NCBI GenBank assembly: GCA_016203395.1
Contig: JACQMV010000035.1
Location: forward strand, 415 to 64,414
From: Candidatus Woesearchaeota archaeon
GTDB lineage: Archaea; Nanobdellota; Nanobdellia; Woesearchaeales; ARS49
Reading direction: 5' to 3'
DNA length: 64,000 nucleotides
The notes under the pieces are model-generated. The model worked only from the letters and a program-made list of their open reading frames with translations, made no database searches and had not been told where the DNA came from. Positions 3,103-34,880 of the stretch are shown here, one piece after another; within the stretch, counting starts at the first letter, position 1, and each line of letters opens with the position of its first letter. The translations under genes were made by a program, and so were the position numbers.

Positions 3103-3392
3103 AAAGTTATAATGTAGCTCAATATTTAAACCTATCTATTCTCAGCACTAATAGTAATCAACCTGTTTCGTAGGTCTTTTCCCACGGCTCTTGCTAAAAA
3201 TATTTTGATTATGTTAGCCAGTATTTGCCTTATAACCAAGCCATTACAATGAAATTGTTGTCAAAGCACGTGAGCCGCAGGGCAATACCGATACACACAA
3301 TTAGCATATTTTTAGCAGGGACAAATACCCCATTTTTTAGTCACGCAGAGTTCTGATAACATTTATAAACATGACCTTACTGATGAGTAATT

Positions 3393-7745: not shown

Positions 7746-7844
7746 TTATTCTTACGGAAGAAGCCACAATATATACGTGCTTAACATTAAATAAATATCA
7801 ATATATATGCGTCCAAAAAACCCTGCTAAAAAACATAATGGGCT

Positions 7845-8010
7845 GCATTATTTGTCCAGCAGCTCAAGTGCTTTGACTATGAACTTTAACGCAAGCCAGT
7901 GTGTTGCTTGCCATGAACAATGCATTTTGTTTGCATACTGTTGCACAACAGTTGTGCCATTGTTGCAACAGATTGCAAGCACAGGATTTACACTGCAACA
8001 ACCATCCTGG
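7845..8010 (+). repeat. Partial or degenerate copy of the dispersed intergenic repeat family (module 2-like)
   Basis: cagcagctcaagtgctttgactatgaactttaacgcaa and ttgttgcaacagattgcaagcacagg match the conserved cores tgctctgaYtRtgaactttaacgcaatta and ttgttgcaa..ttgcaaacac of the copies at 9030, 26155, 34330, 49320 and 61706. Confidence 0.4.
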
Positions 8011-8920
8011 AAAGAATTTCTTCTTTCATGCCCTGTTTTGCGAACTTTACAGGAATATCCTTGCAAAGCACCTCACTCATGTATCCCTGACAAAGCTGTT
8101 CAAGACCATCTAACTTAATATCATGGCTTTCCGGATCATGGTGCGTAATATACAAACTGCCAACATTTGCCTCTGCAGCAATATCACACACTCTCAAAAT
8201 ATTAGAATGACCCCAACCCTTCTTCGTCATATACTCCTCAGGATCATACTGGCCATCCATAACAAGAGCATCAACACCATTGATTATACCAATAAGCGTC
8301 CTGTCCTTTGGCCCAAAACTTCCAAGACACTCACCATCATGCTCATAATCGCCAGTATAAGCAACCCGGGTTCCATCATTCTGAATAAGATAGCCGAACA
8401 TGCCTTCAGGATGGCAGCTGTGAAAAAACGGCTGAACTGAGGTAAAACCATTTATTATTGGTTCCTCATTAAGATCGGTGAAAGTAATATTCGCACCCAT
8501 CTTATCCAATGCAACAGGAAAAAAGTCACGCCCCTGCTGATAAAGAAAGCCGCTTTTAGTGTAATTAACTTCATTACACTTGTTAGTGCATGGTTCCGTC
8601 TTATCCCACGTCCTTCCAAGAGCAATTCTCCTATGACCGCCATACACCCGCAACACATTACCGGGCTTATAGCACGGCTTGAAAAAAGGAAAACCATTAA
8701 TGTGATCCCAGTGAGTGTGCGAAATAAAAACATCTGCATCTGTCTTTCCCCTGATAAGCTCACTGCCAAGGACTCTCGCTCCAGAACCCATATCAAAAAT
8801 ATACAACCCATCAGAAGTTTCTACTGTAAGACAGGAAGTATCCCCTCCATACTGCACAGTGCCTTCCCCCGGTGTTGGTATGCTCCCTCTTGTTCCATAA
8901 AATGTTATTTTCATTTTCAT
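7988..8920 (-). CDS. Metallo-beta-lactamase-fold hydrolase
   Basis: HxHxDH motif ISHTHWDHINGFPFF. N-terminus MKMKITFYGTRGSIPTPG. The tracked ORF begins at 9058, but an internal ATG preceded by GGAGG is the likely start. Confidence 0.65.
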   Translation of the reverse strand: MKMKITFYGTRGSIPTPGEGTVQYGGDTSCLTVETSDGLYIFDMGSGARVLGSELIRGKTDADVFISHTHWDHINGFPFFKPCYKPGNVLRVYGGHRRIALGRTWDKTEPCTNKCNEVNYTKSGFLYQQGRDFFPVALDKMGANITFTDLNEEPIINGFTSVQPFFHSCHPEGMFGYLIQNDGTRVAYTGDYEHDGECLGSFGPKDRTLIGIINGVDALVMDGQYDPEEYMTKKGWGHSNILRVCDIAAEANVGSLYITHHDPESHDIKLDGLEQLCQGYMSEVLCKDIPVKFAKQGMKEEILSRMVVAV

Positions 8921-9029
8921 CGCCTCCATACAATACCTTAGTTCATGAAGAATAAGATACCTACCATCAGAAATTGCCTCAAACAAGAAAATAAACAAGC
9001 AATAATTATGAAACAGCACCCTATCACCC

Positions 9030-9330
9030 CTGCTAACTCTTATCTTAAATGAGGTCATAACCTATCAGCAGCTATTGTGCTCTGATTATGAACTTTAACG
9101 CAATTAACTCTTTTTAATTGACATGAGCAATACCATTTGTTGCAACCTGTTGCAAACACATTACAAGCAAAAGGTAAGGGCTAAGTATGGCAACAAAACA
9201 AGAAGCGTTCAAATCACGAGCCAAGCCACAAGGGCTGCTAGGAAATAACCATATCTTCTTTGGTAAGTATTGGCAGGTCTGGGAAAAGAATTACGCGCTC
9301 TTTGATAAGTATTAGCAGCCGGGGATTAAG
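9030..9330 (+). repeat. Dispersed modular intergenic repeat, copy A (plus orientation)
   Basis: Modules: gctaactcttatcttaaatgaggtcataacctatcagcagc; tgctctgattatgaactttaacgcaatta...ttgacatgagcaataccatttgttgcaacctgttgcaaacac; aaggtaagggctaagtatggcaacaaaacaag...caagccacaagggctg; tattagca. It matches copies at 26155, 34330 (reverse), 49320 (reverse) and 61706. Confidence 0.7.
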
Positions 9331-9360: not shown

Positions 9361-10302
9361 ATGTTTGACATTATTTCAATAGGCAGCGCAACAACGGATT
9401 GCTTTGTAAAAGCGAAACCAGAAGGATTCATCAAAAGACAAAACCATATTGATGTATGTTATGCAGTAGGGCAAAAGGTGCTTATTGAAAGCATGGAACA
9501 CCAAACAGGCGGAGGAGGCACAAACACAGCAGTGGCTTTTGCACGACTAGGGCTTAAAACTGGTTATGCAGGAATAGTAGGAAATGATGCTCATAGTAAG
9601 GAAATACTTGAAGAACTAAAACACGAAGGAATAACCTTTCTTGGCAAACAAAAAAACGGACAGACTGGCTACAGCATAATACTAACAGGGCTGAAGAACG
9701 ACAGAACAATACTAGCATACAAAGGAATAAATGACAGCATGAAACCAGCAGACTTACAAATAAAAGACGCAAAATGGTATTACATATCATCATTCATAGG
9801 AGACAGCTTTGTTTCAGCACAAAAAATCCTACGCAAAATAAAAAAACCATGGACATTCAACCCATCAATGTATCTTGCAAAAAAAGGAATAAACAACCTA
9901 AAAGAATTCGTGCAAGGATGCGGGCTATTAATAATGAACAAGGAAGAAGCAATGGCAGCATTAGGAAAAACTGAAAGCATGAAACAAATGGCACAAGAAC
10001 TCGGAAAAAAAACGTGCAGAACAATAATCACCGACGGAAAAAACGGAGCTTTGGGCTATGACGGAAAATTCTACAAAGTATTTCCAAGAAGAATAAACGT
10101 GATTGAAACAACAGGAGCAGGAGACGCATTCGCAGCAGGATGCACAGCAGCAATCCTAATGGGGATGAAATTTTCCCAAGCACTGAAACTAGGACAAGCA
10201 GAAGCAGAAAGCGTGCTGTGCGCAATAGGAGCAAAAAATAATCTTTTAAGAAAAAACAGAGCAATAGAAGAAATGAAAAACATAACTGTGAGGGAATTAT
10301 AA
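9361..10302 (+). CDS. PfkB-family (ribokinase-like) sugar-phosphate or nucleoside kinase
   Basis: N-terminal GG motif TGGGGTN. C-terminal anion-hole/catalytic motif TTGAGDAFAAG. Substrate cannot be assigned from sequence. Confidence 0.75.
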   Translation: MFDIISIGSATTDCFVKAKPEGFIKRQNHIDVCYAVGQKVLIESMEHQTGGGGTNTAVAFARLGLKTGYAGIVGNDAHSKEILEELKHEGITFLGKQKNGQTGYSIILTGLKNDRTILAYKGINDSMKPADLQIKDAKWYYISSFIGDSFVSAQKILRKIKKPWTFNPSMYLAKKGINNLKEFVQGCGLLIMNKEEAMAALGKTESMKQMAQELGKKTCRTIITDGKNGALGYDGKFYKVFPRRINVIETTGAGDAFAAGCTAAILMGMKFSQALKLGQAEAESVLCAIGAKNNLLRKNRAIEEMKNITVREL

Positions 10303-13610: not shown

Positions 13611-14669
13611 TTATATAATTACAGCAGAAGAATCTGATGTTCGTGTAAATATAGTTGATGGCTTATCCTTGAGAAAATCAAATGAGTATAGCCGAACAGT
13701 TTCCTCGCCACTTTTCAGGTCAGAGAGATAAGCATCAAGAAATTCCTGAACTAATTCATCCTGTGTTACTGGTTGCAATAACACAACCTGTTCCTCAAGC
13801 GGCAATTCATTTAGAAGTGATGGCTCTTCTTTCAACAGCGAATACACCAAATGACTTTTAGCCAATACTTTTCTTACTTCAGGAGAATTGACCTTCAAAT
13901 GATACTCAACACCATTCATTTTTGATGCATCAATGTTTAATTCTACAAAAGCAGCACCTTCCATACTTTTCAATCTGTTTTTTACTGCTTCATTGCTTAA
14001 CTTTACGAAATTTGCCGCATACAACTTGCTTAGCACTTTGTTCCTAGGAACTAAAGAGCCCTGAAATTCTGGAATAACCGGCTGGTTATGCGTTGCCATA
14101 AATAAACTATAAAATCCATTAAAGTGAGCTGTTTTACTGCCATTACATGAAATCTGATAAGATTTTGTTTCAAACTCCATCTCTAACAAATCAGGCCTTG
14201 CAAAGCCATCTATACCGCCAATTTGTGAATTAATTGTAGAAGCAGTAGTTAGCACTTCTAACATTAGTTTGTCATCCAAAATCATATACGGATTACGTTC
14301 AATATCCAAAATACGTCCAGACAAGTTCTTTATTTGCTGCACAGTCCCTTTTGAAGAATCCCAATTAATCCTGACACGGTAGCCCTGCTGCAATGGCGTT
14401 GTTTCCAATCTGCCAATCAAACAGTCGTTCTTAAGAACGCGAGCAATAATCCCTTTATTGCGTGAATAAAACTCGCGAAGTATCATCTGAAAATCAATGC
14501 CAGAAAACCTTATTGCGCAATCATAATCTGCATCAAGCTGGGATAGCGTTGCCAGAAGAAAAACCTTATCCTTAGCAACAAAACCACTAAAGTCAAGAGA
14601 TTGCTCACTGAAACCAGGCAATACTTGCGTAAGCATGTCAAATTCCTTTTGATTAATACTTACTTTCAT
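13611..14669 (-). CDS. Hypothetical protein (352 aa), last gene of the GHKL/ClpX-like operon
   Basis: ORF overlapping the 928-aa gene by 17 nt. No recognisable motifs. Confidence 0.45.
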   Translation of the reverse strand: MKVSINQKEFDMLTQVLPGFSEQSLDFSGFVAKDKVFLLATLSQLDADYDCAIRFSGIDFQMILREFYSRNKGIIARVLKNDCLIGRLETTPLQQGYRVRINWDSSKGTVQQIKNLSGRILDIERNPYMILDDKLMLEVLTTASTINSQIGGIDGFARPDLLEMEFETKSYQISCNGSKTAHFNGFYSLFMATHNQPVIPEFQGSLVPRNKVLSKLYAANFVKLSNEAVKNRLKSMEGAAFVELNIDASKMNGVEYHLKVNSPEVRKVLAKSHLVYSLLKEEPSLLNELPLEEQVVLLQPVTQDELVQEFLDAYLSDLKSGEETVRLYSFDFLKDKPSTIFTRTSDSSAVII

Positions 14670-17400
14670 CTGCTACCTCACGTTCATAAAATTCATACTT
14701 ATCAGATTCTTGTATTACCTTTTTAGCAACCACACTCAACGCTCTGCAAAGGTTTCCATGCGCAAGAGCTTTCTCCTCATTAATAAGTTCAAATATCGCA
14801 GGAGCAGAATAACTGCGTATGAGCTTTGCCCTTGTTTTGTAAAACAAGCTCTGAGTAAGTTCAGAATTAAGCTGCAAACCCTTGGCTTTACTGCCAAACA
14901 CTGCATTAAACAAAAACCTGCTTCTTGATGCCTCATCCATTACTTCAAGCCGTCTTACAAAAGCAGCATAATAACAATTTTCTACCAAAAACTCGGCCTG
15001 ATTTAGCGTTGCTGCAAAAGCAACCTCATCAGGATAAGCATTTCCAAGCCAAAAATCCAGTTCATTTCTTCTACCTTTTGATACAATCCTGCAAACAGCA
15101 CGCATTCTTTGAAAATCATCCAAGCCACTCAAGTAATTCTCCAACTTCAATTTGTTATTTTTGGAATAATAAAACAATGCAACAGCAGAAGGAGAGTTAT
15201 CACAAGCAAGCATGGCTCTTTCAAGCATTTCTGCATGCACTTCCAGTGCGTGATCACGTGATACGCAATCAGAAACAACGCCCTTGGCGTGGATTAACGG
15301 AATTAACGCATAAACCAGTTCTGGAATTTTTTTGTCGGCAACCAATACAAACTCAGAAGCATTCCTGCCAATACCAACGTGGAGGCCTTCATAATCCTGC
15401 TGAACTAATGTGTGTTTGTTATTAAAATGCATGCCGCACTCCTGACAATGGTTGAAATCAATCAGATTAAAACCAAAACCATGCATGTCACTCAATGCAA
15501 AACTCATCATTCTAACTAATGACTCCATTCTCGCCTTATTAGCTTCATTAATCGCATGCCTTTCATATACTCTTCTCTCAAAATAATTCCTGAGCATTCT
15601 ACTCACAGCAAAAGAATCTGATTTTTCCTGAGAATCAGCATCCTGCGTATGACGTGTTGCAGCATGCTTTACTGCATTAAATGAAGGCACTAAAACCTTT
15701 GTAGTAATAAAAGAATGACGCGCACTTTCTGACACTTTTTTGCTTGCAGATGCGCAATTATCAATCAAATAAGCTGAACCTTGCTTTATTGCATTACCTG
15801 CTGAACAAGACGCATCAAAAACCAAATTGTATGCACGACTAACTGCGCCTTTTACTCTCCTATAATTTTTCCTTGTAGAATCCTTCATTCTATTAATTGA
15901 TTTCTCATTCTTAGCAATAACTTCATTTCCAAAATCATAAGCAACATTTGTTGCCTTAGCAGCAACATAGCCAGTCAAACAAACACCGCCAATTGCTCCG
16001 CACGCAATTGCTCCTGTAGAAACAACATCAAGAATCACATCACCCACACTATATGCATTAACTGCCAATGCGCCTGCTCCAGCAATGTAAATTCCTGCAG
16101 CAGAAACAGTTTTTATTACCGGATTATTAATCCCTGAAAAAGGAGCGAGCAAAATATTAGCTCCTTTTTTTGCATGCTTTCCTCCAATGCACATGGCACG
16201 AGTGAGTGTGGCTTTTCTCTGCACATTACACAAGTAAGAATCATAATCCTTAATAGGAATATAACGCGATGGAGTGCAAAATATGTCAAAGAATACTCTT
16301 GTAAAGTCTATCTCAGAGAAATCAAGCACAAGCCCATCTCCTTCTTCAGGCAGTGTATTTTCTCTTGAAAAAAACAGTATCTTCGATCTCTGGTTAATAC
16401 TAAGAAAATCTGAGATATCTGCCAAAGAAAGTTTTCTGTTATAAACATCCTTAAAAACATCTGCTGTCACAACTGCGCTTTCAAGATCACCGAGCCGGTT
16501 ATTTCTTGCCCGGAGACCAATTACTTCCAATGGCAAATTAGACATAATGCCCTTTGCTAAAACCCCAAAGGGCTCATGAAACTCCTTATCATCAGGATGC
16601 TCAATAAACTTCTTTACAATCTCCAGATTCAACAAGTAAATGCCCTTTACTGCAGACTGTGTAAGATCCTGAACTGTTTTTTCTGATTCAAGAGCAGCAG
16701 TTGAAGGAACCATTGGAATATCCGGACTGTCAATAATAACATATTTTCCTGAACCAATAGTGCTTGTTGCACTATAAACAAGAACGTTGTTTCTGAGCAA
16801 CAACAGCTTACCTGATACTCCTTTTTGTTCTTCACAAAGCAAGCCAGCAACAGCTCTTGTATTACCTGCACTAAAATCAACTACACACCTTGATTTGATA
16901 TCAATATTAACTTTTTTCTTTCCAAGATATACTGGAACAGAACTGTATTTGCACCGTTCTATAATCTTGGCAACTGCGTTATCGTGAGACCCTTCTCGTT
17001 TCTTAACAACAACATGCATGCCGTTTTTTAAGGATGATTTCTCAAATGTCTGATGACCGAGAGCATCAATACGAAGCTGAACAGCACTGCCATTGTGAGC
17101 ACTATCAAGAATAATTTCCAACGGACTTATTGCAAATGCAGAATACACCAGTCCGGGAATGTTAGAACTGCCTGCTTGTGTGGTAAACGCCTGTTTGAGA
17201 GATTCTTCGCTAATACCCTCGCCATCTGAACGAACAGAAAATTCAGAAGCACTGCAATTAACTCTGACCTCGCCGGGTCTTGTCTGCATCACTAACTCAA
17301 CAAGAGCAGAAGCATACGCGCCCGGTTCCTTATCTGTGCACTGACCCAGCTTACGTGCCCTGCTAATAACATCCACTGTGTAAGGAAAATCTTTATTCAT
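14653..17400 (-). CDS. Large protein (about 915 aa) with a divergent N-terminal GHKL (Hsp90/MutL-like) ATPase-like domain and a Gly/Ala-rich hydrophobic segment; paralog of 17393..20038
   Basis: N-terminus MNKDFPYTVDV. N-box-like ALVELVMQT. G1-like SVRSDGEGISEESL. G2-like GLVYSAFAIS. A Gly/Ala-rich hydrophobic stretch GIYIAGAGALAVNAYSVGDVILDVVSTGAIACGAIGGVCLTGYVAAKA is present. Preferred start is ATG 17400, an 8-nt overlap with the upstream gene. Confidence 0.55.
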   Translation of the reverse strand: MNKDFPYTVDVISRARKLGQCTDKEPGAYASALVELVMQTRPGEVRVNCSASEFSVRSDGEGISEESLKQAFTTQAGSSNIPGLVYSAFAISPLEIILDSAHNGSAVQLRIDALGHQTFEKSSLKNGMHVVVKKREGSHDNAVAKIIERCKYSSVPVYLGKKKVNIDIKSRCVVDFSAGNTRAVAGLLCEEQKGVSGKLLLLRNNVLVYSATSTIGSGKYVIIDSPDIPMVPSTAALESEKTVQDLTQSAVKGIYLLNLEIVKKFIEHPDDKEFHEPFGVLAKGIMSNLPLEVIGLRARNNRLGDLESAVVTADVFKDVYNRKLSLADISDFLSINQRSKILFFSRENTLPEEGDGLVLDFSEIDFTRVFFDIFCTPSRYIPIKDYDSYLCNVQRKATLTRAMCIGGKHAKKGANILLAPFSGINNPVIKTVSAAGIYIAGAGALAVNAYSVGDVILDVVSTGAIACGAIGGVCLTGYVAAKATNVAYDFGNEVIAKNEKSINRMKDSTRKNYRRVKGAVSRAYNLVFDASCSAGNAIKQGSAYLIDNCASASKKVSESARHSFITTKVLVPSFNAVKHAATRHTQDADSQEKSDSFAVSRMLRNYFERRVYERHAINEANKARMESLVRMMSFALSDMHGFGFNLIDFNHCQECGMHFNNKHTLVQQDYEGLHVGIGRNASEFVLVADKKIPELVYALIPLIHAKGVVSDCVSRDHALEVHAEMLERAMLACDNSPSAVALFYYSKNNKLKLENYLSGLDDFQRMRAVCRIVSKGRRNELDFWLGNAYPDEVAFAATLNQAEFLVENCYYAAFVRRLEVMDEASRSRFLFNAVFGSKAKGLQLNSELTQSLFYKTRAKLIRSYSAPAIFELINEEKALAHGNLCRALSVVAKKVIQESDKYEFYEREVADESKY

Positions 17401-20038
17401 CAGAATCCTCCAAATAACTCTCCCATGATAGCGTTTCATGAATCAAAAAACGCGGTTGATCTTTAAGCAATTCCTTAACAACCCTATACTCATTATGTTC
17501 AGCCAATCTCTCGCGGATGAAACGCACTTTTGTTGATACACACGTCCCTTTTTTGTTTTCTGCTATACGCCTAACAACGCGGTCTGTTGCGTTCTCTAAA
17601 TCAATTCCAATAAAATTAACTGAATCGGCAATGTCGCGCATGGACTCTCTTGTCGGTTCATGGCAGAAATACAATTCAAAAGCAAGACCCATTCTTTTGT
17701 CACAATCCAGCAACCCGTATCTTGTCAAAAACGCACTCCTGTGATTTCGTTCAAGAAGCATAGCCATATTATTCGGAGTAATACTTGCGAGACGCTCAAC
17801 TTCTAAAGGAAATGCAGAAGCGAGCCATTCATCAATAACAGGAAAACGTTTACTAACATCATGCAAAAGCGAGTGGATAACTGCATTTTTTCTGGTATAA
17901 TCAAGCCATCTGATTTCTGTTTCTAAGCGAGAAAGGTCTTTCTTCGCATACCATTGCCTAAAGAATTCAGTAGGAGGGTAAACTAATGAATCAATACAAG
18001 TCCAAAGCACCCTTGAATTTATGTTTGTTGCATCTGCATAAGGAGATTTTGCACGTGTTGCTAATGCATGAGCAAGAGGAATTACTGTGTAAGCAAATGC
18101 GTTATCCTCCTTAATAGCGCTGACTAACTGCTGAAGTTCAGGGTTGTTACCATTCAAGCCAAAATGAGGATGCTCCGATCTACCGTCATTAAACATAGCC
18201 ATTAACTTCTTGCTCTTACTCAACACAAGATGAAACGGACATTCATAGCAATCATTTATTCTATCAACCCCTTTAGCGACAGTGTCCAAAACAAGTATTA
18301 AGTCAGCAAATTCTCTGGCTTTTTCTATCCTCTTCTTTTCTTCCTGTGCTTTTTCATCCTCTGCTGTTTTATTCAGCGAGTTTGAAAGCCACTCAAAAGG
18401 AGTTCTAAACATCTTACCAATATCAAACTTAGCTATTTTGACAGCACGATCTGCTGTACTTTCCAACAAAGGGGCGTATTTTTGCAGTTTTGAGCTACAA
18501 CTTTGTTTCAACCTGCGAATCCCCTCTATGTTCCTGTTAACAACGTAGTAAACGCCTGCTCCAGCAGCACCAGCACTTGCGGTAGTTGCTCCTGCAGCTG
18601 CAAGCAGCTTTAGTGCAGGTACAATATTCTGCCCCATATCAAACGTGCTGTATGCAAGCAAGCTAATACCCGAACCATAAGTCACGAGCGCAGTAGCACA
18701 AGCAGCTTTTTCACCAAGCAATTCTTCAACCTTTTTAAAAGGATGCATTAAGAAATTTGCTTGGGCTAAATACCTCACCCGAGTACGCTCCAAATACTCC
18801 TGCCTTCTCTGGCCAAAAGCAGCGTCTGAAATATAGGCATCATAATCCTGCACAGCACACCTCCAACTCGGGCTAGTAGTAGAAAAAATATAAGGATTAT
18901 CGCCTTTTAAAAGCAGGATAACAAATGGTTTTTTAGTGTCCTTTCTATGCGTATAAAAAATAATGCCTTTGTGTTGCTCCATCCTCTGCCTTTCTAAATC
19001 ATATATTGAATACACCCTGCCTTCATTATCGCGAAAAACCCCAGCAAGCAGTACGTGCCTCTTAATATCTGACAAACTGAGAGTGTTAGGATGGTCAAGC
19101 GATATAACACCAGCAACACTACGATACGCTTTGATACTTGATTCTGCCCTATCAAAAAAGAACCTTTTCGTAAATGTTCTTTCATTCACAAAAGGAGAAC
19201 GAATGTGCTCGTCAATAATCCCTTTTTCAAGAGCTTCCATTGCTTTGCCAACAACTGCTTTCAACAGGGTTACCTGCTTATCCTGCTCAAGCGAACGCCC
19301 GATACTAAACAATGGAAGTGTATCACAGTTTGCAATACCCCAAAAATCTTCATAACCCCATTTAAGATTCCCTATACTAATCCCTTTTCTAAGAACTCTA
19401 GTAGTGCCATAACAAGGATGGTCATAATGCGATTCTCTTGATTCACCCGTTCCTACAACACCTGTTATCCCTGAATCAGTAAATTCTTGCACAACACAAC
19501 AAGGAAATTTTAGTGGCTTGCTTAACTGTTTTTTCCCTTGAAATATCGGGGCAGTTGAATACAGACACTTTTTTCTAATACAAGGTGTTTCGTAATCAAA
19601 CAATGAATGAGTATTCTTTTCAACCATTACAAGTATTCCATTATCAAGAGAGCCAGTGCTGAAATTAGGATTGCCATTTTCATCAATTTCCAAACGCGTT
19701 TTTTCACCTCCCACAGAGGATTCAAGAAATATTCTTTTTGGACTGATTGCTAAAGCAGACATAAGCAAAACAAGAAGCCCTTCTGCTTTTCCAGCATCAA
19801 TAGCACTGCTGCCAGATGCGTAAATATCCTCAAGCTCTTTTCTTGTAAAACCGCCGGAAGGTGAGCGCACTCCAAAGGTGCTTGAAGTTCTACACAAGAC
19901 CATTCTTGAAGGATTGGTTTCTGCAACGAACCGAACAAGATTAACCGCATACTGCGCTTTATCATTTGTTTGATACATTGCCAGCTTTCTTACTTTGCTT
20001 GCCAAGTTCACCTTATACGGAAAATCACTGTCTGGCAT
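17393..20038 (-). CDS. Large protein (about 880 aa), paralog of 14653..17400, with a more degenerate GHKL-like N-domain and a Gly/Ala-rich segment
   Basis: It shares MPDSDFPYKVNL with the MNKDFPYTVDV of its neighbour. It has LVRFVAETNPS / RSPSGGFTRKEL / GLLVLLMSALAIS in positions equivalent to the N, G1 and G2 boxes. The Gly/Ala-rich stretch is LKLLAAAGATTASAGAAGAGVYYVV. Start chosen at ATG 20038 by paralogy, a 14-nt overlap. Confidence 0.5.
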   Translation of the reverse strand: MPDSDFPYKVNLASKVRKLAMYQTNDKAQYAVNLVRFVAETNPSRMVLCRTSSTFGVRSPSGGFTRKELEDIYASGSSAIDAGKAEGLLVLLMSALAISPKRIFLESSVGGEKTRLEIDENGNPNFSTGSLDNGILVMVEKNTHSLFDYETPCIRKKCLYSTAPIFQGKKQLSKPLKFPCCVVQEFTDSGITGVVGTGESRESHYDHPCYGTTRVLRKGISIGNLKWGYEDFWGIANCDTLPLFSIGRSLEQDKQVTLLKAVVGKAMEALEKGIIDEHIRSPFVNERTFTKRFFFDRAESSIKAYRSVAGVISLDHPNTLSLSDIKRHVLLAGVFRDNEGRVYSIYDLERQRMEQHKGIIFYTHRKDTKKPFVILLLKGDNPYIFSTTSPSWRCAVQDYDAYISDAAFGQRRQEYLERTRVRYLAQANFLMHPFKKVEELLGEKAACATALVTYGSGISLLAYSTFDMGQNIVPALKLLAAAGATTASAGAAGAGVYYVVNRNIEGIRRLKQSCSSKLQKYAPLLESTADRAVKIAKFDIGKMFRTPFEWLSNSLNKTAEDEKAQEEKKRIEKAREFADLILVLDTVAKGVDRINDCYECPFHLVLSKSKKLMAMFNDGRSEHPHFGLNGNNPELQQLVSAIKEDNAFAYTVIPLAHALATRAKSPYADATNINSRVLWTCIDSLVYPPTEFFRQWYAKKDLSRLETEIRWLDYTRKNAVIHSLLHDVSKRFPVIDEWLASAFPLEVERLASITPNNMAMLLERNHRSAFLTRYGLLDCDKRMGLAFELYFCHEPTRESMRDIADSVNFIGIDLENATDRVVRRIAENKKGTCVSTKVRFIRERLAEHNEYRVVKELLKDQPRFLIHETLSWESYLEDSDE

Positions 20039-22058
20039 TTTCAAGCTCCATAAATTTTTTGAAAAACCTTTTTTGAAACCTATGCGGATTGCCACTCAGG
20101 TAATATCTTGAAACTCCTTCAGTATACAACAAACTAATTGCGAAATAAGCAGCAAAGCATGGCTTTTTTGCATAATCATACTTTTCTGCAATAGCCATAA
20201 GCCGCCTTACTGTCGGACTGTTGAGGTTCACATAAACCTCTGTTTTACCTGACAATCCGAACTCAGACATGCTGATAAGATTCTGACCGCCAGAAGAGCC
20301 ATATCCTGCTTGCAGAAAACTGAAAGGAAAATCTTTTGTTTCGTTCAACACCTTTTCAGCCATAACCTCAACAATCTTTTTTCCAAGGTCATACTCCCTT
20401 ATTGCCCCTCTAATCAAATCACAGAACCTTTTTTCTTCAGCACTCAAATTCTGTGCTGTAACCTTTGACATAAACCTATACTGTTCTTCAACTTTCTTAA
20501 CCGTAACAATCTGGCTAAGAAATTCTTCAGGAAATGTCGAAGCAGAATCATACAATTTTGTTCTTATTATCGTTTTTCCTGCCTTCTGAAGCGCACTTGT
20601 AAGATCATTATGAGAAGCAGCAACATACACTACTTTGTTCTCCTTTGCCAGTCTCAAGACATCAGTAATAGACAAACACTCTCCCTGAGTTGTTTGAAAA
20701 ATACGGCGCTGAAGACAATCAGCAGGCAGGAATTGCCATACTTTCTTTTTCCGCACAATCTGAAAACTTCCTTTCTGAGTAAGCTTGCCTACCTGAATAT
20801 CGTAATTTTCCTCATACACTGTTGCAGTGCATTCCCGCAAAGGCAGAAAAGAACGAGCATGCTCACTCTGTGCTACTGCTTTAAGCTTGAGTTTTTTCAA
20901 ATGATTTGAAAGTGTTTCCAACAAAATGGAATACTCCTGAGACAATTCACCAATTTCTTTGTAAAAATCGTAATCTGTTGAATGCCTCTGACGTAGTTGT
21001 TGCACATTCATTGTTGTTATTTCCTCTAAACGCCTGTAAATCTGCTTTACAAGAAGCGGCTCCTGAGCACGAACAATTGCTAACGCATGCTCAAAATAAG
21101 AATCCCTCATTGCCTGCGTTCTGTCAATAGTGTGTTTAAACCTCGGAGATTCCAATAGCACAGACCACGAGTCGTTGGTTAAATTCCTGCCTTGTTCAAT
21201 AGAAATACCGTGCTCCTCAATCTGATAATCTGCAACAGCACGTTCATTATTACGCTGTTTTCTCAGTGCAATAACTCCTTTCAAATCACCGCTTGAAAAC
21301 TTAATCTTTGCAACAGCATCCTCAATATCAAAGGGCCGGTTGATTGTCATTTTATTGATGTACATAGGAATTTCAATATGATGTGCCCGTGAAGTAACCT
21401 CAGACATCATTCTGCTGATGAAATCAACTGCATGATGCTGCGCATCAAAATGCCTAACAAAGATTTCTCTTGTTCCACGATCTTTTGGCTTTGTTTTTGA
21501 CAAAGCCGGATCAGTAATAAGGTCATAAACATAATTCAGCGATTTAATTGAAAATATCTGCTGATTGAACTGGTCTTCACGCCCGGTAACATTCGTAAAC
21601 CGCGCCTGCCACCACTCAGCGTCTTTTGTTGATTCAATAGCATACACGTCAGGAAGCAGTTTGAAAACTGATTTCCCTCCAATACCAAATTTGCCTGCTT
21701 TTGTTACATCAAACTCCTTGGCTGAAAAATACATGTTAAAAAACCTACTGTCACGGTCCTCATGAGTCATGCCTATACCATAGTCCTCAGATACTATCAT
21801 AACTGTGAAAAGAGAATTGCCACAATTTGCTTTAAACTCATCAAGCATACCCAATCCGGCAAGCCGTGAGTCTCTTTCAGCATCTGGCTTTTGCTCATCT
21901 AAAAAATACCACCAGTCTATCTGAGGCGTTTCTGAATCACGATGATTCTGAACAAGCTCTACCCACGCCATTTCAGCCCTTGGAAACTGGTCAACAACCT
22001 GCTCAAGATTTCTTCTGGCATCCTCAAGAACAGGATCATCAAGAACAAACTGCGTCAT
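20025..22058 (-). CDS. GHKL-superfamily (Hsp90/MORC/MutL-like Bergerat fold) ATPase, 677 aa
   Basis: N-box ELVQNHRDS. G1 box EDYGIGMTHED. G2 box GKFGIGGKSVFK. The roughly 500-aa C-terminal region is unassigned. Confidence 0.65.
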   Translation of the reverse strand: MTQFVLDDPVLEDARRNLEQVVDQFPRAEMAWVELVQNHRDSETPQIDWWYFLDEQKPDAERDSRLAGLGMLDEFKANCGNSLFTVMIVSEDYGIGMTHEDRDSRFFNMYFSAKEFDVTKAGKFGIGGKSVFKLLPDVYAIESTKDAEWWQARFTNVTGREDQFNQQIFSIKSLNYVYDLITDPALSKTKPKDRGTREIFVRHFDAQHHAVDFISRMMSEVTSRAHHIEIPMYINKMTINRPFDIEDAVAKIKFSSGDLKGVIALRKQRNNERAVADYQIEEHGISIEQGRNLTNDSWSVLLESPRFKHTIDRTQAMRDSYFEHALAIVRAQEPLLVKQIYRRLEEITTMNVQQLRQRHSTDYDFYKEIGELSQEYSILLETLSNHLKKLKLKAVAQSEHARSFLPLRECTATVYEENYDIQVGKLTQKGSFQIVRKKKVWQFLPADCLQRRIFQTTQGECLSITDVLRLAKENKVVYVAASHNDLTSALQKAGKTIIRTKLYDSASTFPEEFLSQIVTVKKVEEQYRFMSKVTAQNLSAEEKRFCDLIRGAIREYDLGKKIVEVMAEKVLNETKDFPFSFLQAGYGSSGGQNLISMSEFGLSGKTEVYVNLNSPTVRRLMAIAEKYDYAKKPCFAAYFAISLLYTEGVSRYYLSGNPHRFQKRFFKKFMELENARQ

Positions 22059-23037
22059 CTTTCACCCCGGGAATTACAAAAACACGCTCACCAACAAGAA
22101 TGTTTTTTGTTGAAACATAATAACGAGACAACAGTTCCCTAAATTCTGTTGAATCCCTGCTTGAATGATTCGCAGAAACCTCTTTTGACATGACTGCTAA
22201 AGCACAACCATCACCAATTGAGGAAAATACTTTGAAAGCAAGATCATCTGCCTGAATAGTTCTTTGAGTGACGCTCGTTGCAGGAAAATAAAAAGGGCCT
22301 ATTGTTGACATCGTAACCCTCAAAGGGCGTAAGTTTTTGTAATGCTGTATTATCTTAAAAAGTTCTGAGGGCTCAACATGATAAGCGCGCTCAAAAACAG
22401 AACGCAAAAAACTGCACAATTCAACACCATCAGGAGAAAACCTTATTTTGGCTTTTGAAAACAGCTTTTCAACATAAGCCATTTCTGCTGTATACTTCAC
22501 AAACAAGTTTTTTGTCACATCAAAACCATCAATAACAACATCAATTCCGTGCTCATTCTGCGTCCTGCCACTGTAACTAGCAGCAATGGAAATTAAAGCA
22601 ATGAAAGGAAAGTCTTTGACACGCTCATAATACTTTCTCATCTTCAAACTCTTTCTTGGAGCGTCTAATACGCTGAGAGATGGAACAGTAATTTCGGACA
22701 ATGTCTGCTTTACAAGCCCAACAACCTTTTCAGTATTATGAGTTCGCGCAAGACTATCACTGGCAATTCTTTTATCAACCTCTAATGCCATATAACTTCC
22801 TCTTGTCGGAAAACCAGATTCTAAATCAACCTCCAAACCATCATGAATTTTACAGGCAATCGCCGAAGTCATTAATGATAAGGAATCAATAATGTATTCT
22901 GTATCAGGATACCTTGGAGTAAGAATGCCCACTCTCTGCGAATGCCTTAAAGCAGAGAATAATAAAGAAAGATAATCTAGCGATTCCTGACTGGAAAATC
23001 TTTTGACAGGGGTTTCCAAAACAGGGTGTTGTAGCAT
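22039..23037 (-). CDS. Hypothetical protein (332 aa)
   Basis: ORF in operon context, overlapping the next gene by 20 nt. No motif recognised. Confidence 0.45.
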   Translation of the reverse strand: MLQHPVLETPVKRFSSQESLDYLSLLFSALRHSQRVGILTPRYPDTEYIIDSLSLMTSAIACKIHDGLEVDLESGFPTRGSYMALEVDKRIASDSLARTHNTEKVVGLVKQTLSEITVPSLSVLDAPRKSLKMRKYYERVKDFPFIALISIAASYSGRTQNEHGIDVVIDGFDVTKNLFVKYTAEMAYVEKLFSKAKIRFSPDGVELCSFLRSVFERAYHVEPSELFKIIQHYKNLRPLRVTMSTIGPFYFPATSVTQRTIQADDLAFKVFSSIGDGCALAVMSKEVSANHSSRDSTEFRELLSRYYVSTKNILVGERVFVIPGVKDDAVCS

Positions 23038-23054
23038 AGCATCATTTTTTTTTC

Positions 23055-24251
23055 TTATGGTGTATCTTCTTCTTTCGGTGAAGGGAGCTTTTTTACGTAT
23101 TCACTAAGCCCGGTTCCTTGCGAGTCAGCGGCAGCAAGATATCTCTGCACTGCAGAAGGATTGCCTTCTCTTAGTGACTGAAGTGTTGCAATAAGCGCCT
23201 GTTTCGCGCCTCCCTCATCAGCTACTAGTGCCTGGAGCGCGCTTTCAGCTGCCTGGTTGCTTGCATCAATAATGTCAGGAAGGAATACCTGAGAACTAAC
23301 TAATCCTTCATGATTCTTTGCAAGAAGTTCAAGTGACTGTCCGGATGCCTTCATTGTTGCATTCAAAACTTTATTTAGGTCAGTATACATTCCCGCAGTC
23401 TTCTCATATAGTTCTGCAACCTTTGCTAACTGAGTCATCTGTTTAAGCATTGGACCTTTTTTATCCAGTGTGCTTCCAACTTTAGCAACTTGATCAATAA
23501 GCATGGCTGCATAAAGCGCTAACTGTTGAGCTATTGCCCTGCTGCTTTCTATATCCTCAACAAGTTCATAAGTTCTTGATTTAGCAACAGAATTATTTAT
23601 TCTTGCTTCTTCAATGCTCTGCTCAAGCAAACTAATGGCTCTATGTAATTCTATGCCTTCTGTAGGCAATTCAGCAGCAGGAATGTTTTTATATTTTTTG
23701 AATTGCTCAGTTGCTAGCGCATATTGTCCATCAAGCTCTCTCCCATACTTTTCTATACGCTCTCTTGTTTTTGCAAGACCAACAAGTTCATCTTCTGCCT
23801 GGCTGATACTTGTTCTTAATTGTTTAAGCGTACTTAATATTCCTTCATCATTCTCAACATAGGTTCGTATAGTTGCAATGCGCTCTCTCGTTTTTGCAAT
23901 AAAACTTTCAAGAAATTCATTAACTTCCTGTCTTGCAAGATAACTGCCTAGCCAAGGAACTTTATGAACCAGAGCGTTGCCTGCTTCTTTTGCACTTTCC
24001 CATCTTTTTCCCTCTGAAAATATCCCTTTAACTGCAGGCAGAAACTCTTCGTGTTTCTTGACTGTAGCTGCGACCATGGTTCTGACCTCTTCCCATATCT
24101 TACCTGTTTCGCCCATAACTTTTTCTGCTTTTTTCCTTTTCTCAGCCCTTTCCAGTGACGCTTGTTTTGATTCTGCAATTAAATTAGTAAGTTCAGGTAG
24201 AGCAGCATTTGGCTCGGAAGTCATAAGTGATAATTTTCCTGAATTATTCAT
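23055..24251 (-). CDS. Alpha-helical, coiled-coil-rich hypothetical protein (398 aa)
   Basis: Highly charged heptad-like sequence with E/K/L/A-rich runs. The start overlaps the ClpX-like gene by 8 nt. Confidence 0.45.
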   Translation of the reverse strand: MNNSGKLSLMTSEPNAALPELTNLIAESKQASLERAEKRKKAEKVMGETGKIWEEVRTMVAATVKKHEEFLPAVKGIFSEGKRWESAKEAGNALVHKVPWLGSYLARQEVNEFLESFIAKTRERIATIRTYVENDEGILSTLKQLRTSISQAEDELVGLAKTRERIEKYGRELDGQYALATEQFKKYKNIPAAELPTEGIELHRAISLLEQSIEEARINNSVAKSRTYELVEDIESSRAIAQQLALYAAMLIDQVAKVGSTLDKKGPMLKQMTQLAKVAELYEKTAGMYTDLNKVLNATMKASGQSLELLAKNHEGLVSSQVFLPDIIDASNQAAESALQALVADEGGAKQALIATLQSLREGNPSAVQRYLAAADSQGTGLSEYVKKLPSPKEEDTP

Positions 24252-26043
24252 TTTTATTGCCTGCCTTTTGCTTTAGCTTTCGCTTAACATAGCTATTTAA
24301 ATAAGCATCAGGATTGTTTAAGAAATCTTTAGTAACTGTAAACGTATCTTGTTTTATAAGCTTTAAAGCATACGGAAGAGTGGCTGTTGCGCTTTCAAGC
24401 GCACTAATAAATGCCTGCGGCCTCAAAGCATCAAATTCTATTCCTTTAACATTAATCCTCAAAGCAATGTCTTCTTTAGTAAGATACTTTCTTGCAAATC
24501 CTCTAAAATAGTGCTGTATGAAAAAGCAATCACTCTCTGCTTTCGGCTCCTGCACAAAAGAAGGCGAGATTCTCACATTATTAACTCCTGTTAATCCAGG
24601 AAGACCGGTTCTTAAATGACAAAGAACGTCCTCAGTAACAGTCATTATTGACCTTGCACCAAGCCCAAGAGAGTGCGCTTTTTTGGCCATTGCTCTTAAG
24701 GCATCATCATCAAATTCTACACTAACACCTGTTGCAGAACGTATCAGATTCTGCTGTTGCTTCAAAAGAGAAATATCTGACTCAGTCATTATGCGCAAAA
24801 TGTCATTTTCTGTAAGATCATGAAATGGAGCAATATATGGAAGACGACCAACTAACTGGTGAAGGAAGCCATACTCGGTAAGGTCCTGTGAACTAACTTT
24901 TGTTAAAAGCCCATACTTTCTTGCACTAGCAACATCGTTTGTTTCTCTCTTAAACCCTACTGTCTGTTCTCCTAAACGTTTTTCAACAATGTCTTCAATA
25001 CCTTCAAAAGCACCACCTAAAACAAAAAGAATGTATTTTGTGGATATTTTTCTCTGATTGCCGAACATTGTTGTCAGTGGGTTATGATCAGGTAAAGCAT
25101 CAATCAAGCAGTTTTCAAGCATTCTCAAAAATGTTCCCTGAGTTTCTTTTGAAAACCAACCACCCACTCCTTCAGTGCCTTTTACAAGTTTGTCTGCCTC
25201 ATCAATAAAAATAACGCCATAAGGCACAAGAGAATGATCCTTTGACTGCTTGTATAATTCCCTTACTGCATCAGTAGCATCTTTGCCGTAAATTCCTGTT
25301 GGAGTAAACTGGGTTGCATCAACTGCAAGAAAAGGAAGACCTACTACTTTTGCAAGAGCACTGACAAGCGAAGTCTTACCAACACCAGTTGAGCCGATGC
25401 ACAAAACACCACCTTTGCGATAATCTGGAATTTCAGCTCCTTTAATTGCTTGCTGAACAGCACTTGCATGATAAAAGAATGCATTAGCCAATACCTGTTT
25501 AGCCCCATCCTGACCAATAATAGTTTTGTCAAGGGCGGCAATCATTTCCAAAGGCAAAGGGCAGTGTGTGAGAGATTTTGGCTGAGCAGATACTTTATGT
25601 TCGGCTTCAGAAACAGGAGATTCTGGCTGAAAAAAAGGAGAGTTCTCAAATATCTCTCTGAACAGGTCCTTAGGAAATAAGTCCTCAGGAGAACCACTTA
25701 ACTTTCTCATGTTTTTCAACACCTCTTTGAGCATTTGTTCCCTTTTACCTTCTAAAATCGGCCGCACCTTATCTGGAGGAGGTAATTTATTATCTACAAC
25801 AAGCTGATGAAGTTTAGAATACATTGTTGAACCGTCATCTTTTTTTGAAGGAGCATAGCCAAACCTTTGGTCATATCCGTCAACAAACGCGGTTATTCTT
25901 CCTTTCACAAATGGCTTTGCTGCCCTAGTTAAGAAATTTGTTGGCATGCTATCAATTTCATTCATAATTGCTTTTGCATACGCCCTTACTTTTTCCGTCT
26001 CTGATAACTTATCCCACGCAGGGTCCTTTTCACGGTCAGCCAT
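24244..26043 (-). CDS. ClpX/HslU-like AAA+ unfoldase ATPase (orphan: no Zn-binding N-domain, no adjacent peptidase)
   Basis: IIGQDGAKQVLANAFFYH resembles ClpX VIGQEQAKKVLAVAVYNH. Walker A GSTGVGKTSL. Pore-loop-like TGIYGKDA (ClpX GYVGEDV). Walker B VIFIDEADKL. There is an approximately 160-aa N-terminus and an approximately 100-aa C-terminal extension, both novel. Confidence 0.65.
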   Translation of the reverse strand: MADREKDPAWDKLSETEKVRAYAKAIMNEIDSMPTNFLTRAAKPFVKGRITAFVDGYDQRFGYAPSKKDDGSTMYSKLHQLVVDNKLPPPDKVRPILEGKREQMLKEVLKNMRKLSGSPEDLFPKDLFREIFENSPFFQPESPVSEAEHKVSAQPKSLTHCPLPLEMIAALDKTIIGQDGAKQVLANAFFYHASAVQQAIKGAEIPDYRKGGVLCIGSTGVGKTSLVSALAKVVGLPFLAVDATQFTPTGIYGKDATDAVRELYKQSKDHSLVPYGVIFIDEADKLVKGTEGVGGWFSKETQGTFLRMLENCLIDALPDHNPLTTMFGNQRKISTKYILFVLGGAFEGIEDIVEKRLGEQTVGFKRETNDVASARKYGLLTKVSSQDLTEYGFLHQLVGRLPYIAPFHDLTENDILRIMTESDISLLKQQQNLIRSATGVSVEFDDDALRAMAKKAHSLGLGARSIMTVTEDVLCHLRTGLPGLTGVNNVRISPSFVQEPKAESDCFFIQHYFRGFARKYLTKEDIALRINVKGIEFDALRPQAFISALESATATLPYALKLIKQDTFTVTKDFLNNPDAYLNSYVKRKLKQKAGNKNE

Positions 26044-26154
26044 TCAAAAGTTATATCTGGATAGTTTATAAACCTATCTTAAAAAACTCACTACCGAGTG
26101 AGCACACTCCTGCTAAAAATCATCTGAGCAAATAACATATCTGCCTTGCAGCCC

Positions 26155-26450
26155 GTGCTAATTCTTGTCTTAAATGATGTTATAGGTTATCAGCAGCCAT
26201 TGCTAATTCTTATCTTAAGAGGTTATAACTTATCAGCAATCTTTGTGCTATGATTGTGAACTTTAACGCAATTAGCCGTTTTATTGACAAGAGCAATACC
26301 ATTTGTTGCAAATGATTGCAAACACGGTGCAAGCACATGGTAAGAGCTAAGTATAGCAACAAAACAAGATACCTTCAAACTACTCATCAAGCCACAAGAG
26401 CTGCGAGCCAGATACTAATTTATACACCCGGAGTATTTTTAGCAGATTTT
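26155..26450 (+). repeat. Dispersed modular intergenic repeat, copy B (plus orientation; 5' module tandemly duplicated)
   Basis: ctaattcttgtcttaaatgatgttataggttatcagcagcc and ctaattcttatcttaagaggttataacttatcagcaatc are a tandem pair. Then tgctatgattgtgaactttaacgcaattagcc...ttgacaagagcaataccatttgttgcaaatgattgcaaacac...ggtaagagctaagtatagcaacaaaacaag...caagccacaagagctg...agtatttttagca. Confidence 0.7.
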
Positions 26451-31670: not shown

Positions 31671-32578
31671 GGCTTCTCCGCCACAAGAATCATTGTACTA
31701 TCAGGGAAAGGTTGTGGCACGAGCTTCCCGCCACTTTCTTTGAACAAAACAAAGTTTTTTTCATAATGTGTCATTCTAAGCCAGTCAATAAGGTAAGATT
31801 GCTTATAAACCACGCGGAAACCGAGCTTTTCAAGCTCATTAGCATATTCATTCATACTCCAAAAACCAAAGTGTTCTTTAACCTCAATATCCCAGTTCAC
31901 GTCATAAATGTATTTTGTAAGAAACTCCATGCAATCTGCCCTGCGCAATTTTACAATGTCGCCTTCTTTTTTGTACGGAATCTGATAAGGACCAAAGTCC
32001 TTTGCAAACCTATAAAACTTCTGCAAAACCTCTTCATTCTTGAACGAAAGCCCAACTAAATCATTTTTTGGCTTTACACCATCTCTTATAATCAATCGTC
32101 CGCCCGGCTTTAGCGAATCATACGCATTTTTCAAGCCAGCCCTAACAGCACTTCGGTCATAACCACTGTAAGAATACACCTCATGCAGAACAGAACAAAA
32201 AACAGCAGTGTTTAGCGTGTTCTCAGGAAATTTAGCTTTGATAATATCTGCTTTTTTGAGAATAACTTTTCCAGCATACTTGCGCTGTTCAGCCATGTCA
32301 AGAAGAGTATCAGACAAGTCAACACCAACAACTGTGCTTTCAGGAAAATGAGCAGACAAAAGCTCAAGCACAGCACCATTACCACAACCAAACTCTACAA
32401 TATTCCCCGGAAGAACAAACGCAAGAATTTTTGACTTCTCCTGCATGCTTGCATTCATGTTCTTTGCATACACCTTAAAACCCTGCTCGCCACGATCATA
32501 AATTTCCTGTTCCAATGTCGTTTCCAGTTCCATAACGCGAATAATGATGCCAAACATAAGAGACTTATGTATATACAA
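31667..32578 (-). CDS. Class I SAM-dependent methyltransferase, first gene of the NAD operon
   Basis: Motif I VEFGCGNGAVLELL. Acidic residue after beta-2 (GVDLSD). 4-nt overlap with pncB. Confidence 0.55.
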   Translation of the reverse strand: MYIHKSLMFGIIIRVMELETTLEQEIYDRGEQGFKVYAKNMNASMQEKSKILAFVLPGNIVEFGCGNGAVLELLSAHFPESTVVGVDLSDTLLDMAEQRKYAGKVILKKADIIKAKFPENTLNTAVFCSVLHEVYSYSGYDRSAVRAGLKNAYDSLKPGGRLIIRDGVKPKNDLVGLSFKNEEVLQKFYRFAKDFGPYQIPYKKEGDIVKLRRADCMEFLTKYIYDVNWDIEVKEHFGFWSMNEYANELEKLGFRVVYKQSYLIDWLRMTHYEKNFVLFKESGGKLVPQPFPDSTMILVAEKP

Positions 32579-32639
32579 CTAAAAAAATGTACATAATGTA
32601 TTGAAAAGATACATATTATAAGCACATAATACTGGTGAC

Positions 32640-34329: not shown

Positions 34330-34880
34330 CCACTACTGGTTTGTGCAAATATTCTCCTGAGACTGCCAATACTTGTCAAAAAAGGTGTTGTTATTTTTCC
34401 ACAGCCCTTGTGGCTTGATGAGTAGTTTGAAGGTATTTGGTTTTGTTGCTATACTTAGCCCTTACCATGTGCTTGCGACTGCCAATACTTATTAAAGAAT
34501 GTGTTGTTATTTCCTAGCAGCCCTTGTGGCTTGGCTCATGATTTGAACGCTTTTTGTTTTGTTGTCATACTCCGCCCTTACATTTTGTTTGCGTTGTGTT
34601 TGCAACCGGCTGCAACAAATGGTATTGCTCTTGTCAATAAAACTGCTAATTGCGTTAAAGTTCACAGTCAGAGCACAAGGACTGTAGGGCAAATATGCCA
34701 TTTGTTTAGCGTATTCTTAGCAAGGGCTGTGGGATTAATACATTACCAAATCAGGTTATTTTTAGGGAAGCAACAACTGGTATTGCTTATGACGATGAGC
34801 GTGTCTGATTGCAGTAAGAATTAATACTGGAGCACAAGAGCAGCATTGCAGATATTTTGTTCAGAGTATTTTTAGCAACT
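34330..34880 (-). repeat. Dispersed modular intergenic repeat, copy C (reverse orientation; module 3 tandemly duplicated)
   Basis: Two consecutive units gactgccaatacttgtcaaaaaaggtgttgttatttttccacagcccttgtggcttgatgag...cccttaccatgtgcttgc and gactgccaatacttattaaagaatgtgttgttatttcctagcagcccttgtggcttggctcatgatttgaacgc...cccttacattttgtttgc. These are followed by gtgtttgcaaccggctgcaacaaatggtattgctcttgtcaa...aattgcgttaaagttcacagtcagagcaca, which is the reverse complement of modules 3 and 2 of copy A. Confidence 0.7.

Follow-up and report, generated by a model that had tools for sequence, protein, structure and literature searches.

A probable MITE/BOX-like interspersed repeat family in the chromosome of a Woesearchaeon

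Introduction

The BOX elements of Streptococcus pneumoniae and S. suis are modular repeats, organized as boxA-boxB(n)-boxC and ranging from 67 to 637 bp, and they are reported to generate target-site duplications and to have terminal inverted repeats (TIRs) in common with an insertion sequence (IS) (PMC3049150). Here we describe a repeat family of comparable architecture in a 64,000-nucleotide stretch, hereafter the window, from a Candidatus Woesearchaeota archaeon (assembly GCA_016203395.1, contig JACQMV010000035.1, positions 415 to 64,414). Like BOX, the family lies between genes, has no coding capacity and is scattered in both orientations; it is composite, with a module of ∼45–50 nt in variable tandem number and a total length of ∼140–524 bp; its end modules are mutually complementary, giving a long stem-loop; and spurious open reading frames (ORFs) are sometimes annotated on it. 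The likeness is architectural only: the present host is archaeal, no direct comparison of the sequences was made, and we claim no similarity between them. What varies in number here is the terminal unit, or else the right module together with its unit, instead of an internal boxB, and neither target-site duplications nor IS-shared TIRs were found for the family in the window.

A second comparison is with the MITEs (miniature inverted-repeat transposable elements) of archaea and bacteria, of which the SM elements of Sulfolobus are an archaeal example. The present repeats agree with them in being small and non-coding, with inverted ends, multiple intergenic copies and a lineage-specific distribution. 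They differ from MITEs in lacking a target-site duplication and a known parent IS, in having ends made of repeated ∼50-nt units instead of one short TIR, and in being more conserved in the interior than at the termini. An automated census has put one Woesearchaeal genome at 105 MITEs per Mb (PMC11602168).

Two further groups share individual traits with the family. Bacterial interspersed mosaic elements (BIMEs) and REPINs, which are linked to Y1 transposases of the REP-associated tyrosine transposase (RAYT) type, are likewise mosaics of a short unit in direct and inverted copies combined with other motifs, and the smallest copy described below is a simple inverted doublet of the REPIN kind. 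RAYT (K07491) is the only transposase KEGG orthology group with strict matches in 256 Nanobdellota proteomes (10.64898/2026.05.13.725050). The units described here are, however, ∼50 nt long and form no stable hairpin, unlike those of repetitive extragenic palindrome (REP), BIME and REPIN sequences, and no RAYT gene was found in the window, where ∼57 of the 62 genes in our ORF map were scanned with Pfam. DDE elements of the Mu, Tn7, Tn552 and IS3/IS481 types carry several transposase-binding sites at each end and have 5′-TG...CA-3′ termini. Similarly, one to three inverted units occur on each side of our elements, and the units read 5′-TGCTAA...TTAGCA-3′, a TG...CA pattern typical of rve-type DDE transposons; a fragment of an rve-type transposase is present in a related Woesearchaeon (L060). 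This resemblance, too, is architectural only; neither a 3–7-bp target duplication nor a linked transposase was found. On balance, we put the probability that the repeats form a lineage-specific, non-autonomous MITE/BOX-like interspersed family of the Woesearchaeota (DPANN) chromosome at roughly 60%.

Results

One repeat family fills most of the long intergenic gaps

A single repeat family occupies eight intergenic loci of the window, as five full and three partial copies (Table 1). The eight loci named in an initial annotation of this DNA were all recovered, by reading, by a repeat search and by a profile built from the five full copies (nhmmer), against which the full copies scored E 1e-65 to 1e-90; for the partial copies c7 and c44, and for a degenerate extra piece in c34, E was 1e-10 to 1e-18. 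The blocks had been called near-identical, which overstates the case: identity between copies is 72–93%, and the conserved cores that were quoted are exact in two or three copies and not in the rest. Two motifs are nevertheless strongly enriched over shuffled sequence. Allowing up to three mismatches, CTTTGATAAGTATTAGCAG has seven matches where 0.01 are expected, and TTGCA-N4-5-TTGCAA has eight where 0.6 are expected, these eight all lying inside the repeats.

Together the eight loci span 2,173 bp, or 3.4% of the window and 51% of the intergenic DNA in it, and they fill the seven longest intergenic gaps and the ninth-longest. Eight copies in 64 kb correspond to 125 per Mb, close to the value in the automated census. 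The DNA around them is compact (93% coding; median intergenic gap 75 bp). The window is chromosomal DNA of a DPANN archaeon, from a Candidatus Woesearchaeota metagenome-assembled genome (MAG), because its genes are housekeeping ones, among them those for ribosomal protein S15, FBP aldolase, transketolase, an NAD salvage/synthesis cluster and kinases; the NAD synthase encoded at 32640–34322 is 100% identical to MBI4144101.1 of a Candidatus Woesearchaeota archaeon, encoded on a contig of 65,283 bp.

The copies are indeed strictly intergenic when set against the ORF map, as had been proposed. They lie in three divergent, two convergent and three tandem gaps, with two of those in tandem gaps running antisense to the genes beside them; relative to its neighbours, the family keeps no fixed orientation. 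The sequences flanking the copies are unrelated, and copies in both orientations stand among housekeeping genes. One side observation concerns c7 and c9, which have the same orientation and flank a single gene, for a beta-lactamase-fold protein (7988–8921), in a composite-like arrangement (7819–9322).

Table 1. Copies of the repeat family, and genes for AbrB-domain paralogues, with positions in the window
Feature	Position	Strand	Organization	Setting
c3	3186–3323	none	Minimal: A-type ∼50-nt units 3186–3237 (forward) and 3274–3323 (inverted); ends TTGCTAAAAATAT ... ATATTTTTAGCAGG	Divergent gap
c7	7819–7985	+	Partial: left unit, M1 and four GTTGCA-type boxes spaced 10–11 nt; without right half	Between two minus-strand genes, antisense to both
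c9	9025–9322	+	Full: left unit 9025–9079; M1+M2 9075–9159; M3 subtype a 9160–9226; inverted right units 9227–9280 and 9272–9322; core order GTGCTCTGATTATGAACTTTAACGCAATTA, T-rich box, GAGCAATACCATTT, GTTGCAACCTGTTGCAAACAC	End 12 nt short of TATA box of PfkB kinase gene (9361–10302)
c26	26106–26449	+	Full: left units 26106–26159, 26152–26204 and 26197–26247; core; M3 subtype b; inverted A-type right unit 26393–26449	Between two minus-strand genes of one gene string, antisense to both
c34	34359–34882	-	Composite: degenerate partial copy, then full copy with 116-nt right module twice in tandem. Minus-strand order: unit 34833–34882; degenerate M1/M2 34766–34837; units 34719–34770 and 34674–34726; core 34595–34677; M3a + inverted unit 34479–34594; M3b + inverted unit 34363–34478	Fills convergent gap
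c44	44485–44625	-	Partial, right part only: degenerate M3 end and inverted right unit 44485–44535	Convergent gap
c49	49295–49570	-	Full, diverged: left unit 49518–49570 with hairpin GGCAAATAaagTATTTGCC; core with three GTTGCR boxes; M3; inverted unit 49322–49372 and truncated second unit 49295–49326	Divergent gap
c61	61706–61923	+	Without left unit; core, M3 and one inverted unit 61870–61923	Begins straight after stop codon of 60779–61705; same-strand AbrB-domain paralogues on both sides
AbrB paralogue	34918–35829	-	PF04014	
AbrB paralogue	43449–44474	+	PF04014	
AbrB paralogue	45255–46217	+	PF04014	
AbrB paralogue	60779–61705	+	PF04014	
AbrB paralogue	61973–62923	+	PF04014	

Each element is a palindrome built from repeated units

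The element consists of ∼50-nt units on the left, a core of ∼125 nt and the same units inverted on the right. Sub-repeat alignment gave the unit consensus CYTGCTAAwwnTnnnn...GCAGCynTTGTG, with two flavours, A (TGCTAAAAAT...) and B (TGCYAATWCTTAYC...). A unit profile detected 21 units, all inside the eight loci, forward in the left arm and inverted in the right. Within the core, module M1 is GTGCTCTGAYTRTGAACTTTAACGCAATTA; M2 is a T-rich box with ATTGACA, followed by GAGCAATACCATTT and then by two to four GTTGCA(A) boxes at 10–11-nt spacing; and M3 is GCAAGCAAAAGGTAAGGGCTAAGT ... CAACAAAACAAG ... CAAGCCACAAGRGCTG, in two subtypes marked by gcgttcaaatcaYgagc (a) and accttcaaactactcat (b).

M1 begins with sequence complementary to the end of M3 and the units are inverted, so that the whole element is an imperfect palindrome of ∼300 nt. 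The element profile matches its own reverse strand (E 3e-11 to 1e-4), single-sequence and alignment folds of both strands give the same long stem, and the arms are 90.5% complementary in register, as opposed to 31–46% when slid by one to three columns. The inverted ∼50-nt units provide TIRs at both ends, and CYTGCTAAAAAT / ATTTTTAGCAGG are exact in c3 and c26. The units themselves are not REP-like hairpins: when ten were folded as DNA, only the left unit of c49 formed a strong hairpin (z −3.1), the other nine having z between −0.9 and +1.3, and we rejected that reading since no more than one unit in ten fell below z −1. An integron attC site was rejected as well, because the arm ends ...TGAAC / GTTCAAA... 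depart from RYYYAAC / GTTRRRY and because the copies occur in both orientations, separated by housekeeping operons.

The number and type of modules vary from copy to copy. There are zero to three left units and one to two right units, a second right unit being present in c9, c44 and c49 (truncated in the last), and c34 contains M3 with its unit twice. M1/M2 of c9, c26 and c34 are 90–93% identical, and the M3 modules group differently, c9 with the first of the two in c34 (89%) and c26 with the second (89% overall, 95% over the first 75 nt). The doubled module in c34 had been described as a tandem duplication of module 3; the module is present twice, but as a junction of the two subtypes and not as a fresh duplication. 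A further copy, found outside the window and described in the next section, is an a/b hybrid. As judged from these alignments, the module mosaic points to recombination or gene conversion among copies.

The family extends beyond the window and one junction is compact in relatives

A copy outside the window was found with a sense-frame profile. It is annotated as a 47-aa hypothetical protein, HY486_01715 (MBI4143942.1, P0121), on a contig of 2,258 nt, and brings the documented copies to nine, eight loci in the 64 kb and one on another contig. Its accession number lies ∼140–160 below those of the window proteins MBI4144082.1 and MBI4144101.1, and this proximity suggests that the contig belongs to the same MAG. 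Confinement of the copies to the window, which the initial annotation had named as the sign of a local segmental duplication, is therefore not what we see: at least one copy is on another contig. A duplication or an assembly artefact confined to this contig could still appeal to the fact that only one outside copy is documented. We consider this highly improbable, given the location of that copy on a different contig, the unrelated flanks and the two orientations among housekeeping genes, and because independent Logan assemblies of the same organism, from three runs, reproduce the junctions. The Logan contigs end inside c26 and c34, as repeats break de Bruijn graph assemblies.

The gene order around c34 allowed a comparison with relatives. 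In one of them (L063/L064), whose NAD synthase shares 66% identity, the genes keep their order from NAPRTase to a pyruvate-kinase-like gene; there, the NAD synthase gene and the convergent gene for a 304-aa AbrB-domain protein have adjacent stop codons, with a gap of 0 bp. In the window the same gene pair is 595 bp apart, almost all of which is c34. Two other relatives (L060 and L065) have other genes inserted at the NAD synthase junction, with gaps of only 1–53 bp. Neither the element profile nor the unit profile matched anything in ∼60 kb of related Woesearchaeota sequence.

Wider searches were negative. Scans of genome and metagenome contigs with TGAACTTTAACGCAATTA gave only single matches attributable to chance, the source genome lying outside the GTDB species representatives scanned. 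Four scans of viral contigs and blastn against phage records yielded no real copy, and the antisense-strand translation of the repeat, used as a query for miscalled proteins, retrieved nothing. One match of 33/35 nt, covering M1 and the T-rich box, was found at 2402–2436 of L039 and recurs in L040 and L024 (contigs Ga0102832_1006089, VFQO010032790.1 and JGI24216J29974_1055505, respectively). We judged it a chance match in unrelated, eukaryote-like coding DNA: these contigs have 30% GC, and the match is spanned by a 2.9-kb ORF, interrupted by TGA only (as in the ciliate-type code 6), that encodes a coiled-coil-like protein.

The copies do not behave as small-protein genes or CRISPR repeats

Because the outside copy is annotated as a protein, we considered whether the repeats might be genes for a 41–47-aa peptide (MATKQEAFKSRAKPQGL...), with several copies decayed. 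Apart from that 47-aa annotation, an intact 42-codon ORF preceded by AAGGTAAGGG is present in c9, and the reading frame runs without indels over 19 codons in six copies. Against this, of the six M3 copies that the window contains, four lack the start codon or have in-frame stops; the ORF is intact only in c9 and in the HY486_01715 copy; variation by codon position (25/24/18) shows no third-position bias; and a profile search of 1.84 billion representative proteins retrieved only that second copy and a translated CRISPR array (P0123). The small-protein reading is thus largely refuted, and we give it hardly any credence.

The repeats are too long to be CRISPR repeats, and they are also inverted and dispersed, with no cas genes among the window genes scanned; both a CRISPR array and a solitary repeat were rejected on these grounds, in line with the initial annotation. 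Nor does the match to P0123 imply a CRISPR origin, since the similarity is a 9-residue stretch, FKSLIKPQ, counted four times in an unrelated MAG. P0123 is a 119-aa protein annotated from one frame of the array, and thus a miscalled gene; the array itself (L088, 1947–3364; GCA_020047355.1, JAHZTM010044388.1) has ∼21 repeats (AATATCGTGTTTTCAAATCTTTAATCAAACCACAAC) beside cas1/cas2 and ParE-like toxin genes. A replication origin, template or variable repeats of a diversity-generating retroelement and a tRNA-derived element were rejected too, the window containing neither orc1/cdc6 nor a reverse transcriptase or tRNA.

The long stem fits a DNA palindrome, without support for a conserved RNA

The initial annotation had offered small structured RNAs and regulatory leaders as alternatives to a MITE-like element, and our results lend support to neither. 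If the copies were independently transcribed small RNA (sRNA) genes, a weak internal A/T-rich box (TTTTATTGACA) would serve as promoter and CTTCTTT(T) as terminator, yielding an RNA of ∼120–130 nt over the GTTGCA boxes and M3. Two predicted local hairpins, GCAAUA...UGUUGC and UUGCA...UGCAA, are conserved, and in the first of them the G.U pairs favour the sense strand; T-runs follow M3 in most copies, and whole elements fold somewhat better than shuffles (z −1.9 to −2.3). However, nothing in Rfam 15 matched at gathering score, the five hits at E ≤ 10 all lay outside the repeats, and covariation among the five sequences available did not exceed that of shuffles, 85 of 500 of which reached the observed score. 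The 90.5% pairing of the arms arises because the inverted sequence is invariant. In addition, the long stem forms equally on both strands and contains seven G.U pairs in the sense direction and six in the antisense, as expected of a DNA palindrome, and the local hairpins follow trivially from the palindromic nature of TTGCAA. The internal A/T-rich box is also unlike the TATA boxes of this genome (TTTAAATA / TATATATA), and the family is absent from relatives. We regard independent sRNA genes as quite unlikely.

A role as leader or cis-regulator of the downstream gene was rejected on account of the inconsistent orientation of the copies. The promoters of the window are relevant to this point. 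In most operons a canonical archaeal TATA box (TTTAAATA, TATATATA or TTTATAAA) stands 22–32 nt 5′ of the ATG of the first gene, so that the mRNAs are presumably mostly leaderless and copies upstream of genes would lie outside the transcripts. Shine–Dalgarno sites of the GGAGG type were seen at a few internal genes, for example at the probable start (8921) of the beta-lactamase-fold gene.

The conserved core as a possible protein-binding platform

The core is the most conserved part of the element (80–93% identity). This keeps alive those readings in which the host makes use of it, whether as an sRNA or as a binding array. In the latter case, the core would be a host-used protein-binding platform on repeated DNA, as with BIMEs or Correia elements: a regulator or chromatin protein, for which a member of the expanded AbrB-domain family is a candidate, would attach to the paired palindromic TTGCAA boxes, two to four per copy at one helical turn, and to the invariant GAACTTTAACGCAATTA, and binding would insulate or terminate transcription between neighbouring units. 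The restriction of the box pairs to the repeats is consistent with this, as are the three to four boxes spaced 10–11 nt in c7 and c49, the position of copies at transcription-unit borders and the location of c34, c44 and c61 next to the 3′ ends of AbrB-domain paralogues.

Nevertheless, the boxes were not found at ordinary promoters in the window, and the absence of the family from ∼60 kb of related Woesearchaeota, including the syntenic junction, means that any platform role would be recent and dispensable. AbrB paralogues are also frequent (5 of 62 genes), so their adjacency to the repeats could be due to chance. We therefore hold the platform unlikely. The five paralogues are proteins of ∼300 aa with an N-terminal AbrB/SpoVT DNA-binding domain and are 23–32% identical to one another.

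Other features of the window

Three further observations were made on the genes of the window. Firstly, a near-identical palindromic motif (ATGTACATAATGTATTGAAAAGATACATA / ATGTACATTATTGACCGAAAAGATACATA) is common to two divergent promoter regions, one at 32578–32640 between methyltransferase and NAD synthase genes and the other at 35829–35925 between an AbrB paralogue and a cytidylyltransferase gene; it may act as an operator common to NAD-related genes. Secondly, seven co-directional genes on the minus strand (13611–26043), directly upstream of which c26 sits, end with a ClpB-like AAA+ ATPase gene (24244–26043); the remaining six encode large proteins (352, 928, 900, 677, 332 and 398 aa) with no Pfam match (E ≤ 1e-5) and no convincing NCBIfam match. 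Thirdly, a minus-strand operon at 53947–60411 encodes a ThiF/E1-like protein (56735–58030; PF00899; PADLOC E1-E2 models, E ∼1e-13), a JAB/JAMM protein (58033–58950) and four more proteins (454, 353, 137 and 238 aa) with no family match at the thresholds used. This operon may represent a cassette for ubiquitin-like conjugation, or one of the Bil/CBASS type, in a DPANN archaeon.

Discussion

We favour the view that the repeats are MITE/BOX-like elements, and believe that they could have arisen as follows. A transposase acting in trans, encoded elsewhere in the genome or by a gene since lost, would have bound the inverted multi-unit ends and inserted copies into intergenic DNA. After insertion, slippage between units and recombination or gene conversion between copies may have diversified the elements, and the mosaic of A and B units and of a and b right modules, together with the tandem module in c34, could be a product of these processes. 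For the host, the copies would mostly be neutral spacer DNA. Read-through could fold them into long hairpins, and their runs of T may halt transcription incidentally. The architecture, mosaicism, dispersion and non-coding nature of the family are observed; transposition, a transposase-binding role of the units and neutrality are inferences.

Much of the description MITE-like given in the initial annotation agrees with our results. The copies have the size of MITEs (140–524 bp), contain no conserved ORF, are dispersed in both orientations and form a palindrome with inverted units; the junction filled by c34 is compact in three relatives; and a copy exists outside the window. The description does less well with regard to target-site duplication, cognate transposase and the conservation of the ends, and these features, along with several others, weigh against the interpretation that we prefer. 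No consistent direct repeat of at least 3 nt was found within 6 nt of the ends of c3, c9, c26, c34 and c49, the five copies that have both ends; the decay of old copies could hide short target-site duplications. The claim that no transposase flanks the copies proved correct for the genes scanned, among which we found no transposase, integrase or reverse transcriptase, and therefore no autonomous partner is known. The core is better conserved than the end units, which is the opposite of what is predicted for an element constrained purely by its transposase. Moreover, the inverted repeats are imperfect and the element boundaries fuzzy, the copies are fairly old (72–93% identical), their GC content of 39.4% matches the 39.5% of the genome, and the presence/absence support for mobility is weak, coming from one junction in distant relatives (∼66% amino-acid identity).

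These difficulties leave some room for less ordinary explanations. Multi-unit ends without target duplication might mark a mechanism of transposition not yet described in archaea; alternatively, the core might have been domesticated on a mobile scaffold, either as a new archaeal sRNA or as a TTGCAA-array insulator or terminator to which AbrB proteins bind. Even taken jointly, these possibilities seem to us decidedly unlikely.

DPANN genomes are among the smallest and most compact cellular genomes, and yet one selfish-looking family makes up half of the intergenic DNA of the window and lies in nearly every long gap. Streamlining therefore does not exclude a load of active or recently active mobile repeats. 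The repeats account for breaks in short-read assemblies of this organism, offer sites at which distant loci can recombine and give rise to spurious ‘hypothetical proteins’ such as HY486_01715, and they could serve as strain markers. If it is true that the core has a host function, it would offer a rare handle on regulation in an uncultivated lineage. As they stand, the repeats are notable mainly for their density in a streamlined DPANN genome: an ordinary kind of element in an unusual host.

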